From Candidatus Rifleibacteriota bacterium (GTDB lineage: Bacteria; Muiribacteriota; Ozemobacteria; Ozemobacterales; Ozemobacteraceae): a stretch of DNA of 64,000 bases. The notes under the pieces were generated by a model that was given only the letters and a program-made list of their open reading frames with translations, ran no database searches and was not told the origin of the DNA. The position numbers and the translations under genes were made by a program. Each line of letters opens with the position of its first letter. Position 1 is the stretch's first letter. The stretch covers positions 181,981 through 245,980 of the forward strand of contig JANJUX010000033.1 in assembly GCA_024710355.1 (NCBI GenBank), in the 5' to 3' direction. Shown piece by piece: positions 26,556 through 30,997 of the stretch.

Positions 26556-27911
26556 ATGGAAAACGAATTACACTTAAAATGCTTTCTCACCCGGCGCCGA
26601 CTGGCTGCCAAATCAGTTCTGCTCGGCATTGTTTCCGGGCTGGTAGCGGTTATGTTCAGAATCGGTCTCGAAAAGGCGGAACACATAAGGGTGATTCTAC
26701 TGGGCCTGTTGCGTTCGCAGCACGCGCTTATGCCTTCTCTGGTTTTTGCAGTCGCCATGGCGGCAATTCTGATTGCCCTGAAAAAATGGGCGCCTGAGGC
26801 TTCAGGTAGCGGCATTCCACATTTGAAAGGTGTTCTTAAAGAAGGTTTTGAATTCCGGGCGGTTCCGGTCCTGCTGGTTAAATTTTTTGGCGGCCTCATC
26901 GGCATCGGAGCCGGGCTTGCGCTCGGCCGCGAAGGTCCAACCGTGCAGATGGGCAGCGCAGTTGGTGATATCTGCGCCAGAATCTTCAAATCCAGTCATC
27001 AGGAACGGGTCCTTATGCTCTGTGCCGGCGCCGGCGCCGGCCTTGCTTCGGCGTTCAATGCGCCGCTTGCCGGGCTGCTGTTCATTATTGAAGAACTGCA
27101 GCAGAAACTGGACCGTTTCAGCCTGGTGGTCGCTTTTTCGGCAACCATATCTGCCAATCTTGTCTGTAGACTGATTCTGGGGCAGAGCCCGATTTTTCAG
27201 TTGCGTCTGGTTGATTACCCCGACCTGCGCCTCGTTTTGTGGTCGATTCTTTTTGGCGTGGCCATTGGTTTTGTCGGGCTGGCGTTCAATCGATTGCTGA
27301 TCAGGTCGTTGCGGGTTTTTGGTCCGTTCAGGCTGCTGCTTGGCATTCTTCTCGGAATTCTGTTCGGTTTTACCGGTTACTATTTTCCTGATCTGCTCGG
27401 CACCGGACACCGCCTGACCGAAAATGTTTTCCTATGGCGCTACCCGCTGAAACTGCTCGCAGTGTTTCTGCTGGCGCGCTTTCTTCTGACGCTGCTCAGC
27501 TACAACACCGGGGCCCCGGGTGGTATTTTTGCGCCGATTCTTTTACTCGGAGCCCTCTGTGGCGGCATTTTTCAGCATCTGGTCAACTGGGTCGACCCGG
27601 GTCGCTTTGACCCGATGATTTTTCTGGTGCTCGGTATGGCGGGCATGTTTTCGGCAGTCGTGCGCGGCCCGCTGACCGGCACGGTGCTGATCATGGAAAT
27701 GACCAACGAATTCATGCTGCTGCTGCCATTGATGATCGTTTCGATCATGGCTTACGCCGTGCCAGAATTTGCCCACAACAAGCCAATTTACGACGAACTG
27801 CTCGACCTCGATCTGGCCCGCCGCAGGGCTGATGCCGCCGCCTGTGCAGTCTCAGGCGGCGCAGAAGCAAGAGAAGAATCACCAGACACCGGTTTGATCG
27901 ACAGGGAATAA
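26556..27911 (+). CDS. ClC family chloride channel / H+-Cl- antiporter
   Basis: GSGIP, GREGPTVQMG and GGIFAPIL selectivity-filter motifs; ~10-12 TM. Confidence 0.85.
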   Translation: MENELHLKCFLTRRRLAAKSVLLGIVSGLVAVMFRIGLEKAEHIRVILLGLLRSQHALMPSLVFAVAMAAILIALKKWAPEASGSGIPHLKGVLKEGFEFRAVPVLLVKFFGGLIGIGAGLALGREGPTVQMGSAVGDICARIFKSSHQERVLMLCAGAGAGLASAFNAPLAGLLFIIEELQQKLDRFSLVVAFSATISANLVCRLILGQSPIFQLRLVDYPDLRLVLWSILFGVAIGFVGLAFNRLLIRSLRVFGPFRLLLGILLGILFGFTGYYFPDLLGTGHRLTENVFLWRYPLKLLAVFLLARFLLTLLSYNTGAPGGIFAPILLLGALCGGIFQHLVNWVDPGRFDPMIFLVLGMAGMFSAVVRGPLTGTVLIMEMTNEFMLLLPLMIVSIMAYAVPEFAHNKPIYDELLDLDLARRRADAAACAVSGGAEAREESPDTGLIDRE

Positions 27912-27920
27912 AAATTCCTC

Positions 27921-27950
27921 AAGAACCAGCGGCCGCTGGTTCTTTGTCAT
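27921..27950 (+). terminator. hairpin AAGAACCAGCG-GCCG-CTGGTTCTT after ClC gene
   Basis: 9-11 bp inverted repeat immediately after stop; weak T tract (CTTTGTC). Confidence 0.4.
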
Positions 27951-28069
27951 ATATAGTCAAGAACTGACAGGGTTACGCCATTCCCACGCCTGCCCCCGTG
28001 ACTGGAGTAAGTGGGAACGACGAAGAACCCTGTGGTAAAACATGGCAAAAAATCTGCTGTGAAATTTGT

Positions 28070-28591
28070 TCAGAATGCGCTGTCTTTGGCAATTTCTACG
28101 ATCAGCTGTGTATCTTTGGGTATGTCGATATGTTTGCCTTTGACGAAGGTGCCGCCGATCAGGCCAATGGGGCCGAGCAGCATGTAGCCGCCGAGCGAGG
28201 CACCGGCCGCCAGGCCCATCTGCTCGTTGGTTTTAACCGATTTTTCGCCGAGAGTAATCGGCAGTTCTTTACCGTTAGCTGCGGTAACCGTCAGGTAGCG
28301 CAGTTTTAAACTGCCATTGCGGCCAAAATTGCCAGGTCTTCGCACCTTTTCGAGCTGAGCGCGGGCTGTTGCACCCTTTTTGACGATTGTGCGTCTGCCG
28401 ATTTTTATCTCTTCGACAACGGTAAATCTAACCATTTCACCGGTCTTGCTGCTGCGTGTCGACAGGTTTTCTTCGAGGTTGAGGCGCACCAGGGTTCCGG
28501 CCGGAACCATCAGCGCTGCTGCGGCAAAAGCTTCAGTCAGCTGGCAGAAAATTATAAAAAGACAAATCAGTTTGATTGCAAAATGCTTCAT
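28070..28591 (-). CDS. small secreted hypothetical protein
   Basis: 173 aa with signal peptide MKHFAIKLICLFIIFCQLTEAFA; beta-rich; no recognised family. Confidence 0.4.
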   Translation of the reverse strand: MKHFAIKLICLFIIFCQLTEAFAAAALMVPAGTLVRLNLEENLSTRSSKTGEMVRFTVVEEIKIGRRTIVKKGATARAQLEKVRRPGNFGRNGSLKLRYLTVTAANGKELPITLGEKSVKTNEQMGLAAGASLGGYMLLGPIGLIGGTFVKGKHIDIPKDTQLIVEIAKDSAF

Positions 28592-29026
28592 GGCGATTCT
28601 CCTTTACAAAGTCCTTATTTATCGGGATTTTCGAAACATCTGCATTTGCAGAACCGAATGGATTCCCGGCACATATTCTTTTTTTTCCTATTATTGAATT
28701 TATACAATTCGGGGGTCGATGGCAACGTCGGGGTCGACAATTAATTTAAATTCTGTCTGGCCAGTTCTATACAAGCCCGCAAACAATAGAGCGGTTCAGT
28801 TGAAGCGCCCGGCAGTATTTTACCCTGACACTGCCAGTCATCGCCGGCTTGTTTATGTATCAGGCAATAATCTCTGCAATTAAAGAAAAACAACTGTTGT
28901 TGTGATTTTTATCAATAAACGAAGAATGGTGACGAAAAACCTTGAAAAAACATAAAAAATAAATAATATTAGAATAAAGCATATAAAATCGGATCTTTTG
29001 ACTTAAATTCGCCACCAGGGGGAAGA

Positions 29027-30814
29027 ATGTATAGTCAAAAACGTGTAGAAAAGCTTATGGCGACGGTGCCGGCTTTTACCGAAATTCTTGTTTCTTCGTC
29101 TGATTATCAGGTCGCACGCAAGCGTCTGCTGGCTGAAACCCGACGCCTGATCGAAGAAAACGACGATGAAGAGCTATTGTTGATCAGCGGGTTGCAGTTT
29201 GCACTTCGACTGAACTGTGTAAGGGTTTTCAGGCAGTTTTTGAGTCTGAGATCATCTAAAATAGCCGGTTTCGATCTGGTTAAGGTTCTTTTCGATCTTG
29301 CCCACAACAACAAGCGCGATTTGCCGCCCGACCTTTCAGATGCCTTTCTTGAAGATCTGTACCGGATTTTCAGAGGGATTGTCGGCCGGGCCGGAATTTA
29401 CGAACCTCTTAAAAAATCGAGAAAAAAGGGCAGAGAAGCGGCAATAGCCCGCTCGGAATCGCTCAATGAACTGTGCGCAGTCTCTGACGCCACGATCGCA
29501 AAATACCGCAGCGGTCTGGAACCTGAAATTATCAGGCAGAGAGAAGATAACCGCCGGCGCATCATGAGGTTTTTCGACTGCACGGAAAGCGAATTCGCTG
29601 ACTATCAGTGGCAGCTGCGTCATATCGTGCGTGATGCAGAAACACTTGGCAAACTGGTTGAGCTCTCTGAAACCGAGCGGCAGTCGATCGACATGGCCAG
29701 AAAAAGCGGTATTCCGTTTGGCATCACCCCATACTATGTTTCTTTGTTCGACTATTCTTCTGCAAGCCAGTATGACATGCCGGTTCGCACACAGGTAATT
29801 CCGCCGGCGAGCTATGTCGAGGCGGTTCAGAAAAATCAGGGCGATTGCGCCAAAAATCTCGATTTTATGCGCGAAGGCGATACCTCGCCGATTGATCTGA
29901 TTACCCGCCGGTATCCGCGGATCGTGGTTTTCAAGCCTTACAATACCTGCAGTCAGATCTGTGTTTACTGTCAGCGCAACTGGGAAATCGACGACGCCTG
30001 GGCCCCCGGTGCTCTCGCGCCGCGTGACAAAATCGATGCGGCAATTGCCTGGATAGCTGCCAACCCGGCGGTTAACGAGGTGCTTCTGACTGGCGGTGAT
30101 CCGCTGGTGATGAGTGATGCAAACATCAGGTATGTGCTCGAAAGTTTGTCGGCAATCAGCAGCATCGTGCGTATACGCATCGGCACACGCACCCCGGTGG
30201 CGCTGCCGCAGAGGATTACCGAAGAACTCGTCGCCCTGATAGCCCGCTTCCATGAGCCAGGTAAGCGGGAGGTGGCGATTGTGACGCACTTTGAGCACAG
30301 CTGCGAGATTACCCCCGAGGCGATGCAGGCCATTCAGAAGTTCAGACACGCCGGTATGAGCTGTTACAACCAGACAGTGTTCACAATTCAGAACTGCCGC
30401 CGTTTTGAGGTGAGCGCTCTGCGGCGATGGCTGCGTCTGATCGGGGTCGAGCCCTACTATACCTTCAACGCCAAGGGCAAGGAAGAAACTGATTTTTACC
30501 GGGTGCCGCTCGCCCGTCTGCAGCAGGAAGCGAAAGAGGAAGCCCGTCTGTTGCCAGGTCTTTCACGCACTGACGAGCCGGTTTATAACGTACCTGGCCT
30601 CGGAAAAAATTACCTCCGGGCTGAGCAGAACCATCTACTGCTGACGATTTTGCCTGATGGCCGGCGGGTTTATGAGTTTCACCCCTGGGAAAAATTCATC
30701 GCCAACAGCGAGTCGTATCTGCACCGCGATATACCGATTCTCGATTATCTCAAAAAGCTCGAAGCCTTAGGCGAAAAGGCCTCTGATTACCGCAGCATTT
30801 ATTATTATTTTTAA
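29027..30814 (+). CDS. KamA-family radical SAM protein (lysine/glutamate 2,3-aminomutase-like) with ~280-aa N-terminal extension
   Basis: CxxxCxxC radical SAM triad in TCSQICVYCQRNW; KamA N-terminal motif FGITPYYVSLFD; 595 aa vs ~350-420 typical. Confidence 0.7.
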   Translation: MYSQKRVEKLMATVPAFTEILVSSSDYQVARKRLLAETRRLIEENDDEELLLISGLQFALRLNCVRVFRQFLSLRSSKIAGFDLVKVLFDLAHNNKRDLPPDLSDAFLEDLYRIFRGIVGRAGIYEPLKKSRKKGREAAIARSESLNELCAVSDATIAKYRSGLEPEIIRQREDNRRRIMRFFDCTESEFADYQWQLRHIVRDAETLGKLVELSETERQSIDMARKSGIPFGITPYYVSLFDYSSASQYDMPVRTQVIPPASYVEAVQKNQGDCAKNLDFMREGDTSPIDLITRRYPRIVVFKPYNTCSQICVYCQRNWEIDDAWAPGALAPRDKIDAAIAWIAANPAVNEVLLTGGDPLVMSDANIRYVLESLSAISSIVRIRIGTRTPVALPQRITEELVALIARFHEPGKREVAIVTHFEHSCEITPEAMQAIQKFRHAGMSCYNQTVFTIQNCRRFEVSALRRWLRLIGVEPYYTFNAKGKEETDFYRVPLARLQQEAKEEARLLPGLSRTDEPVYNVPGLGKNYLRAEQNHLLLTILPDGRRVYEFHPWEKFIANSESYLHRDIPILDYLKKLEALGEKASDYRSIYYYF

Positions 30815-30997
30815 AAAGGTCACTGTCCTAATAAGCGCAGGAACGGGTAACCTGTGGATCATCGCGGCAAAGCCTGCGTTCGCGAGTGCGGTTAGTGTGG
30901 CTTGTAAAGCAGCTTGAATAATTAATCAATAAAACTTCCTGGATTTTGTGGAGTATACTTGTTGTGTACGATTTTCTGGAAACTTCAGGAGTTTTTT

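Follow-up and report, generated by a model that had tools for sequence, protein, structure and literature searches.

The 64,000-nucleotide window analysed here, a stretch of contig JANJUX010000033.1 from a Candidatus Rifleibacteriota bacterium, encodes a KamA-family radical S-adenosylmethionine (SAM) protein which, as judged from its sequence, is a member of a distinct long-form subfamily, in which a helical N-terminal domain precedes the catalytic core and a short C-terminal domain of the subfamily's own follows it. The protein is probably a long-form glutamate 2,3-aminomutase that would convert L-glutamate to beta-glutamate (3-aminoglutarate), a reading to which we give a probability of about 0.6. 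An earlier note on this DNA had placed the gene product in the lysine/glutamate 2,3-aminomutase (KamA/EpmB) family and had drawn attention to an N-terminal extension of some 280 residues, which it thought might be a regulatory or substrate-delivery domain or the mark of a distinct aminomutase subfamily. The open reading frame (ORF) on which it relied is confirmed (595 residues, its ATG preceded by AGGGGGAAGA; Table 1) and the family placement stands, the lysine option falls with the replacement of a substrate-binding aspartate (D293 to K483), and the last of the three options for the extension is favoured by an N-terminal domain found in this subfamily only and by a pocket with a signature, K483, of its own.

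Membership of the KamA family is borne out by the NCBIfam model TIGR00238 (315.7 bits against a cutoff of 199.2; residues 178-525 aligned to model positions 2-330 of 331), by Pfam Radical_SAM (residues 304-459) and by a phmmer match to the lysine 2,3-aminomutase (LAM) of Clostridium subterminale (PDB 2A5H; E = 1.4e-45 over residues 177-497), the only sequence-related solved structure. A Foldseek search with the AlphaFold2 model likewise ranked 2A5H first (E = 7e-22; template-modelling score 0.72, normalised to target length; 28% identity), followed by generic radical SAM folds. Both motifs on which the placement had been based, TCSQICVYCQ (C308/C312/C315) and FGITPYYVSLFD, are present. The two Pfam domains proposed as a check fared differently: Radical_SAM was the sole Pfam match, and no LAM_C domain was found in the 595-residue protein. 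Among the specific NCBIfam models, Glu_2_3_NH3_mut (TIGR04368) scored best (228.8 bits against a cutoff of 650; residues 136-491), ahead of AblA (TIGR03820; 207.1 against 525.4), arginine 2,3-aminomutase (166) and EpmB (TIGR03821; 126.9 against 369.3), with AblA and EpmB also below their cutoffs. The glutamate model is furthermore the only one of these to reach residue 136, and with it the last two helices of the extension, its match beginning approximately 45 residues deeper into the extension than those of the LAM-type models.

Much of the catalytic apparatus of LAM, whose numbering was checked by an exact match of the C-terminus to residues 287-416 of 2A5H, can be recognised in the window protein. 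In addition to the cluster-binding cysteines (Table 1), the conserved positions comprise R317, which lies within an invariant CVYCQRNWE and corresponds to the alpha-carboxylate binder R134; the SAM motif T355-GGD358 (LAM S169-GGD); R295-Y296 (LAM R112-Y113); and R384, H421, E427 and Q449 (LAM R198, H230, E236 and Q258). The lysine that would bind pyridoxal 5'-phosphate (PLP) is also conserved, K527 of an invariant PGLGK corresponding to LAM K337.

The part of the pocket that faces the distal end of the substrate tells the two enzymes apart. In LAM, D293 and D330 bind the epsilon-ammonium group of lysine. The position of D293 is occupied by K483, and this lysine, together with the surrounding YYTFN[AT]KGKEET motif, occurs in every bacterial and archaeal long form aligned, from Riflebacteria to Methanomassiliicoccales; Escherichia coli EpmB retains an aspartate (D288) at this position in the MAFFT alignment. 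D330 has no acidic counterpart: the segment in question reads P518-V-Y-N521-V-P-G-L-G-K527, and no member has an acidic residue between P518 and K527. To go by the sequence, D330 is probably replaced by N521, which is invariant and stands six residues before the PLP lysine (D330 stands seven before K337); a loop three residues shorter ahead of that lysine leaves the register ambiguous between N521 and P523, the latter being the residue that MAFFT places there. K485, E487 and the surrounding pocket are invariant and specific to the subfamily. With a cationic residue in place of D293 and with D330 lost, the distal group of the substrate would be anionic or polar, which is incompatible with lysine.

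The long forms also differ from LAM in how their subunits may be held together. The zinc/cysteine site of LAM ties its subunits together. Its cysteines, C268, C375, C377 and C380, have no counterpart in the window protein, in which R458 takes the position of C268 and a C-terminal cysteine cluster is missing; exactly 68 residues follow the PLP lysine in all long forms aligned.

The N-terminal extension is genuine, under purifying selection and conserved across phyla. Its length had been overstated: LAM has 124 residues before C125, and residue 177 of the window protein is aligned to LAM residue 4 by phmmer, hhalign and MAFFT alike, so that the extension comprises approximately 176 residues, for which the claim that canonical KamA and EpmB offer no counterpart is upheld, whereas residues 177-300 do have one in LAM residues 4 to ~117. 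Across bacterial and archaeal members its length ranges from 176 to 201 residues (MAFFT alignment), and homologs of 594-598 residues that cover the whole query at 51-80% identity are found in Riflebacteria, KSB1, Edwardsbacteria, Spirochaetota and Calditrichota. The domain diverges faster than the rest of the protein (mean identity to the window protein across phyla 38%, against 72% for the core and 66% for the C-terminus); nevertheless, the family alignment contains 14 invariant positions within residues 1-182, and the family-invariant residues include R75, L88, F107, G117, Y125, R136, R142, S143, L146, G163, L164, N175 and, just beyond residue 176, R178. In a comparison with the 92%-identical relative at locus L009 (L-numbers denote loci from scans of one genome per GTDB species), the ratio of nonsynonymous to synonymous substitution rates (dN/dS) was 0.073 for codons 1-176 (dS 0.77, dN 0.056) and 0.055 for the remainder of the gene. 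AlphaFold2 predicted nine helices for residues 1-183 with a per-residue confidence (pLDDT) mostly above 90 and a predicted template-modelling score (pTM) of 0.81 for the full chain, a model which suggests that the domain is packed on the core and is integral rather than loosely tethered.

No relative of this domain was found in Pfam or the PDB. An exhaustive HMMER search of 1.84 billion representative proteins (clusters) with an N-terminal profile gave only 257 matches (referred to by P-numbers); among these the domain occurred in long KamA proteins and pieces of them, in a small number of fusions and degenerate paralogs, and in no other protein context. The full-length matches inspected were long-form KamA proteins; the many shorter ones look like contig-end fragments, given that their lengths are scattered and that the four that were read are N-terminal pieces of long-form KamA. 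The domain is thus a hallmark of the subfamily and not a mobile module. Its isoelectric point (pI) is 9.3 in the window protein and varies between 5.3 and 10.2 among family members, a spread that speaks against a conserved surface for binding nucleic acids.

Relatives occur in at least 571 species-level genomes, mostly of anaerobes. The best 80 loci all encode long forms, with identities of 47-92%, and long forms measure 595-625 residues. Carriers among these 80 include Riflebacteria, KSB1, Calditrichota, Spirochaetota, many Desulfobacterota (the cultured Desulfonema magnum among them), Bacteroidales, Aminicenantes/Acidobacteriota, Ignavibacteria, Marinimicrobia and Thermincola ferriacetica, and a stepwise search from diverged members added Bipolaricaulota, Vulcanimicrobiota and Armatimonadota. 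The archaeal carriers are many Methanomassiliicoccales and one metagenome-assembled genome (MAG) of Methanosarcinales, their long forms being 45% identical to the window protein along the entire length. The Methanomassiliicoccales were reached from the diverged match P0325, whose locus is archaeal (ribosomal protein L15e, a family-B DNA polymerase and LonB lie nearby); no member from Methanococcales appeared among the matches listed, another diverged match, P0263, belonging to a bacterial clade.

The chemistry proposed for the window protein follows that of LAM. A cytoplasmic enzyme dependent on PLP and on a [4Fe-4S] cluster with SAM would cleave SAM at the reduced cluster to yield a 5'-deoxyadenosyl radical; this radical would abstract a hydrogen from C3 of a substrate held on PLP as an external aldimine after release of the cofactor from K527, and the amino group would move from C2 to C3 by way of an azacyclopropylcarbinyl radical. 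The N- and C-terminal domains may replace the zinc/cysteine clamp of LAM. The clamp is missing, and the new domains, confidently packed in the model, occur without exception; most simply, they would form an oligomer interface or a cap over the active site, and a regulatory role for them is possible.

Comparison with enzymes of known or proposed function points to glutamate as the substrate. The closest parallel is MmarC7_1783 of Methanococcus maripaludis C7, described in an abstract by Tunckanat and co-workers in 2022 as, reportedly, a putative radical SAM aminomutase with an N-terminal extension of ~160 residues, whose pocket residues are said to have predicted glutamate and whose expression in a methanogen reportedly led to the detection of beta-glutamate. 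The window protein resembles this enzyme, as described, in its KamA core, its 176-residue extension and its lysine at the D293 position, and the long form is also found in methanogenic archaea (Methanomassiliicoccales and the Methanosarcinales MAG); it differs in being bacterial, and the comparison is with the reported description of the methanogen enzyme. Membership of exactly the MmarC7_1783 family is likely. Eam, the clostridial glutamate 2,3-aminomutase, was reportedly set apart by Ruzicka and Frey in 2007 on the strength of a lysine and an asparagine replacing D293 and D330 of LAM. The window protein shares with Eam (TIGR04368) the PLP lysine, the CxxxCxxC motif, the radical chemistry and, by that reported definition, the lysine at D293, but it is ~175 residues longer at the N-terminus, its loop ahead of the PLP lysine is shorter, and the 68-residue domain in which it ends is a different one; as its score lies far below the equivalog cutoff (229 against 650), it does not belong to the clostridial family. 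In annotated plasmids, a search for an Eam sequence turned up nothing beyond ablA, blsG and generic KamA genes. LAM (2A5H) has in common with the window protein the ligands for cluster, SAM, PLP and alpha-carboxylate, whereas the window protein has lost the zinc site, D293 (replaced by K483) and D330, carries an additional domain at the N-terminus and is unrelated to LAM in its C-terminal part. EpmB (YjeK), the E. coli aminomutase for beta-lysylation of elongation factor P (EF-P), shares the KamA core at 25% identity; at 342 residues it lacks both extensions, and it keeps D288 and adjoins efp, while the window gene is linked to neither efp nor epmA.

The gene is solitary and has a promoter region to itself, in which the promoter proper is a weak candidate. 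A consensus scan of the region upstream found five promoter-like sites against 2.4 expected, the site listed in Table 1 falling within a 435-nucleotide AT-rich intergenic region, and no riboswitch or leader RNA in Rfam matched at E <= 1 across positions 27800-31100, a range that includes this region. All-against-all clustering of 816 ORFs from 80 loci, at strict and relaxed thresholds, gave no conserved neighbour, the commonest neighbour family being present at only 5-6 of 74 loci; median intergenic gaps at related loci are ~170 nucleotides upstream and ~126 downstream. Genes for an amylase, an AlaDH/PNT-like dehydrogenase, IleRS, FecR, an aminotransferase and a ClC-type channel do recur, each confined to its lineage and not general, and a conserved operon partner was therefore rejected.

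A lone gene fits a route in which one enzyme turns a central metabolite into an anionic, metabolically inert solute. Beta-glutamate is such a solute, an osmolyte whose level follows that of intracellular K+ in methanogens and which has also been recorded in a few bacteria (PMC1224877), and eam genes for its formation are among those under the control of Na+ riboswitches (PMC9337991). The most likely physiological role of the enzyme would be in osmotic or ionic homeostasis, with beta-glutamate balancing K+, but no other step of the proposal is as uncertain as this one, which is plausible and weakly supported. A weak, recurring adjacency to genes for ion and osmotic stress is observed. A ClC-type chloride channel gene lies one gene away from the aminomutase gene both in the window and at L009 and directly downstream of it at L044 (9933-11306), L055 (9944-11671) and the Thermincola locus L081 (9944-11692), where the channel carries CBS domains; L038 contains a partial ClC match. 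A ClC gene is thus close by at 5 of 80 loci, in several unrelated lineages, where a crude estimate of the background would predict ~0.4. MscS channels are encoded within a few kilobases at L001, L042-L044, L055 and the archaeal L091, a P-type cation ATPase adjoins the gene at L091, and a TrkA-type channel is encoded at L001.

Several points weigh against a glutamate 2,3-aminomutase with such a role. The score against the curated Eam equivalog is far under its cutoff, the equivalent of D330 is ambiguous from sequence alone (N521 or P523), and the link to the characterised Eam and MmarC7_1783 rests on reported features and shared architecture; no enzyme assay was found for the window protein or for any bacterial long form. 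Digesters and groundwater, the non-saline habitats of many hosts, give no obvious need for an osmolyte, the adjacency to channel genes is confined to a few lineages and its background rate is a rough estimate, and early nuclear magnetic resonance labelling opposed an aminomutase route to beta-glutamate in one methanogen (PMC1224877).

A wider proposal, distinctly doubtful, would hold that bacterial beta-glutamate in anoxic habitats comes mainly, and unrecognised until now, from the long form, with the N-terminal domain as a built-in sensor or switch. The domain might respond to K+ or ionic strength or control oligomerisation, providing a post-translational response that would need no dedicated regulator; this would account for a gene that is solitary in every case and sometimes lies beside ClC, MscS or cation-ATPase genes.

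Among the alternatives to glutamate as the substrate, another non-lysine or acidic/polar amino acid, such as aspartate, 2-aminoadipate, glutamine or a D-amino acid, is to be taken seriously, if on balance unlikely. The enzyme would then remain a 2,3-aminomutase with the same radical and PLP chemistry, and its product would be a beta-amino acid destined for fermentation, or for a cofactor or envelope precursor, instead of osmoprotection. The score below the Eam equivalog cutoff is compatible with this, as is the pocket, which, with an invariant and subfamily-specific K485 and E487, is unlike that of any characterised enzyme. Amino-acid metabolism is hinted at by a class I/II aminotransferase gene directly upstream in some Desulfobacterota (L073 6656-7954, after a 20-nucleotide gap; L030 6534-7619; L045 6573-7676) and an AlaDH/PNT-like dehydrogenase gene directly downstream in Bacteroidales (L041 9943-11265; also L042 and L043), although these lineage-specific neighbours each occur in one clade (at most 5 of 74 loci). 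The presence of two intact paralogs in a single MAG could likewise mean more than one specificity. Glutamate is nevertheless preferred, as the exchange of Asp293 for lysine is said to be diagnostic for it and the architecture matches that of the methanogen glutamate 2,3-aminomutase as reported.

It is quite improbable that the N-terminal domain recruits a macromolecule (a protein, a peptide or a carrier-bound amino acid) on which a residue is then modified. The invariant arginines R75, R136, R142 and R178 and the basic character of the domain in the window protein would suit such a task, but the spread of pI across the family makes a conserved electrostatic surface unlikely. The high conservation of the core (72%) and the C-terminus (66%) could reflect a conserved partner, and the degenerate paralogs, which keep the N-terminal domain in the absence of catalytic motifs, may have retained a scaffold that binds; no conserved gene for a precursor, carrier or partner was found in the 74 loci, however, and the retention of R317, the alpha-carboxylate binder, fits a free amino acid. 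Free amino acids are, to our knowledge, the substrates of every KamA-family enzyme characterised, which also counts against a macromolecular substrate.

A lysine 2,3-aminomutase of the KamA/AblA/EpmB type, as JGI annotates many homologs, is very unlikely indeed: source annotations of 'lysine 2,3-aminomutase' and the status of LAM as the closest solved structure speak for it, while both lysine-binding aspartates are absent, the cationic K483 would repel an epsilon-ammonium group, the AblA (207 against 525) and EpmB (127 against 369) scores are far under their cutoffs, and ablB, epmA and efp are found beside the gene at none of the 74 loci. Next to no probability attaches to the extension being an annotation artefact with the true start at an internal codon, a possibility raised in the earlier note and rejected here on the strength of full-length homologs and invariant residues, a length and N-terminus conserved across phyla and domains of life, purifying selection over codons 1-176 (dN/dS 0.073), a confident fold prediction and a Shine-Dalgarno-like sequence before the annotated ATG.

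Public databases list hundreds to thousands of long forms as 'KamA family radical SAM protein' or, in error, as 'lysine 2,3-aminomutase', in Desulfobacterota, Bacteroidales, KSB1, Riflebacteria, Spirochaetota, Acidobacteriota and Methanomassiliicoccales. Should these proteins be glutamate 2,3-aminomutases, far more anaerobes would be able to form beta-glutamate than the small number of methanogens and bacteria for which the compound has been measured (PMC1224877), and the annotation could be corrected by a signature consisting of the N-terminal domain, KGK at the D293 position and the YYF tail. The worth of the finding lies in a very large subfamily whose annotation is generic or wrong, in an N-terminal domain with no recognisable relatives and in a long form of which no structure has been solved, LAM being the only solved member of the family. 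The long-form domain architecture should be of interest to radical SAM enzymology and to the engineering of beta-amino-acid routes.

Table 1. Features of the aminomutase gene and of its surroundings in the window (position 1 is the first nucleotide of the window).
Feature	Position	Strand	Basis or remark
KamA-family aminomutase ORF	29027..30814	+	595 residues; ATG start
Subfamily-specific N-terminal helical domain, residues 1-176, nine helices	29027..29554	+	
Canonical KamA N-terminal region, residues 177-300, including WQLRH, the FGITPYYVSLFD motif and R295-Y296 (LAM R112-Y113)	29555..29926	+	aligned to LAM residues 4 to ~117
CxxxCxxC [4Fe-4S]/SAM motif, C308-C312-C315 (LAM C125/C129/C132)	29948..29971	+	alignment
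Codon of K483, invariant Lys at the LAM Asp293 position, motif YYTFN[AT]KGKEET	30473..30475	+	phmmer, hhalign and MAFFT agree
Predicted PLP-binding lysine motif, N521-V-P-G-L-G-K527 (LAM D330-APGGGG-K337); K527 as Schiff-base lysine	30587..30607	+	motif comparison, alignment
Subfamily-specific C-terminal domain, residues 528-595 (68 residues), ending in invariant I[YW]YY[FY], plus stop codon	30608..30814	+	
Purine-rich Shine-Dalgarno-like AGGGGGAAGA directly before the ATG	29017..29026	+	read from sequence
Sigma-70-like promoter candidate, TTGAAA-16/17-TAATAT	28942..28970	+	consensus scan, weak; ~58 nucleotides 5' of the start codon
ClC-type chloride channel gene, one gene from the aminomutase gene	26556-27911	+	
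Putative secreted metallophosphoesterase	30959-32491	+	Pfam Metallophos on the equivalent gene in L007/L008
1313-residue protein, signal-peptide-like N-terminus	32802-36743	+	
PdxT/PdxS-like gene pair (putative PLP synthase)	39473-40968	-	N-terminal translations judged by eye only

Paralogs and fusions of the long form were also encountered. Two intact copies occur in each of two MAGs (L034/L060 in CAZAKB01 and L048/L072 in JAUWSR01), all with the cysteine motif, the KGK motif and NVPxLGK, and such pairs could mean that members of the subfamily differ in specificity or in mode of regulation. P0142 (899 residues), P0164 (926 residues) and P0141 (657 residues) are degenerate paralogs in which the N-terminal domain and the scaffold are kept, most or all of the CxxxCxxC cysteines are lost (e.g., ATSPQSMVYPQRNWE) and the PLP lysine is gone (LPGIGTN, LPVLGRN); their sequences mark them as probable pseudoenzymes, two of which (P0142 and P0164) have gained an acidic, apparently disordered leader of ~300 residues. 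Rare fusions, for which gene-calling artefacts are possible, join the long form to a TetR_N DNA-binding domain at the N-terminus (P0202, 822 residues) or to DnaJ upstream and Peptidase_M54 downstream (P0260, 1357 residues).

In the window itself, the two flanking genes that had been described as encoding secreted proteins do show signal-peptide-like hydrophobic N-termini; they are not conserved partners of the aminomutase gene. The putative metallophosphoesterase carries a long, acidic, low-complexity C-terminal tail rich in Pro, Glu, Asp and Lys, and the near-identical L006/L008 counterpart of the 1313-residue protein gives faint Fascin/FRG1 (beta-trefoil-like) matches in Pfam, a weak DUF7910 match and a Vps62 match. 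Further downstream, the PdxT/PdxS-like pair would, if its products form a PLP synthase as their sequences suggest, provide the cofactor of the aminomutase de novo.

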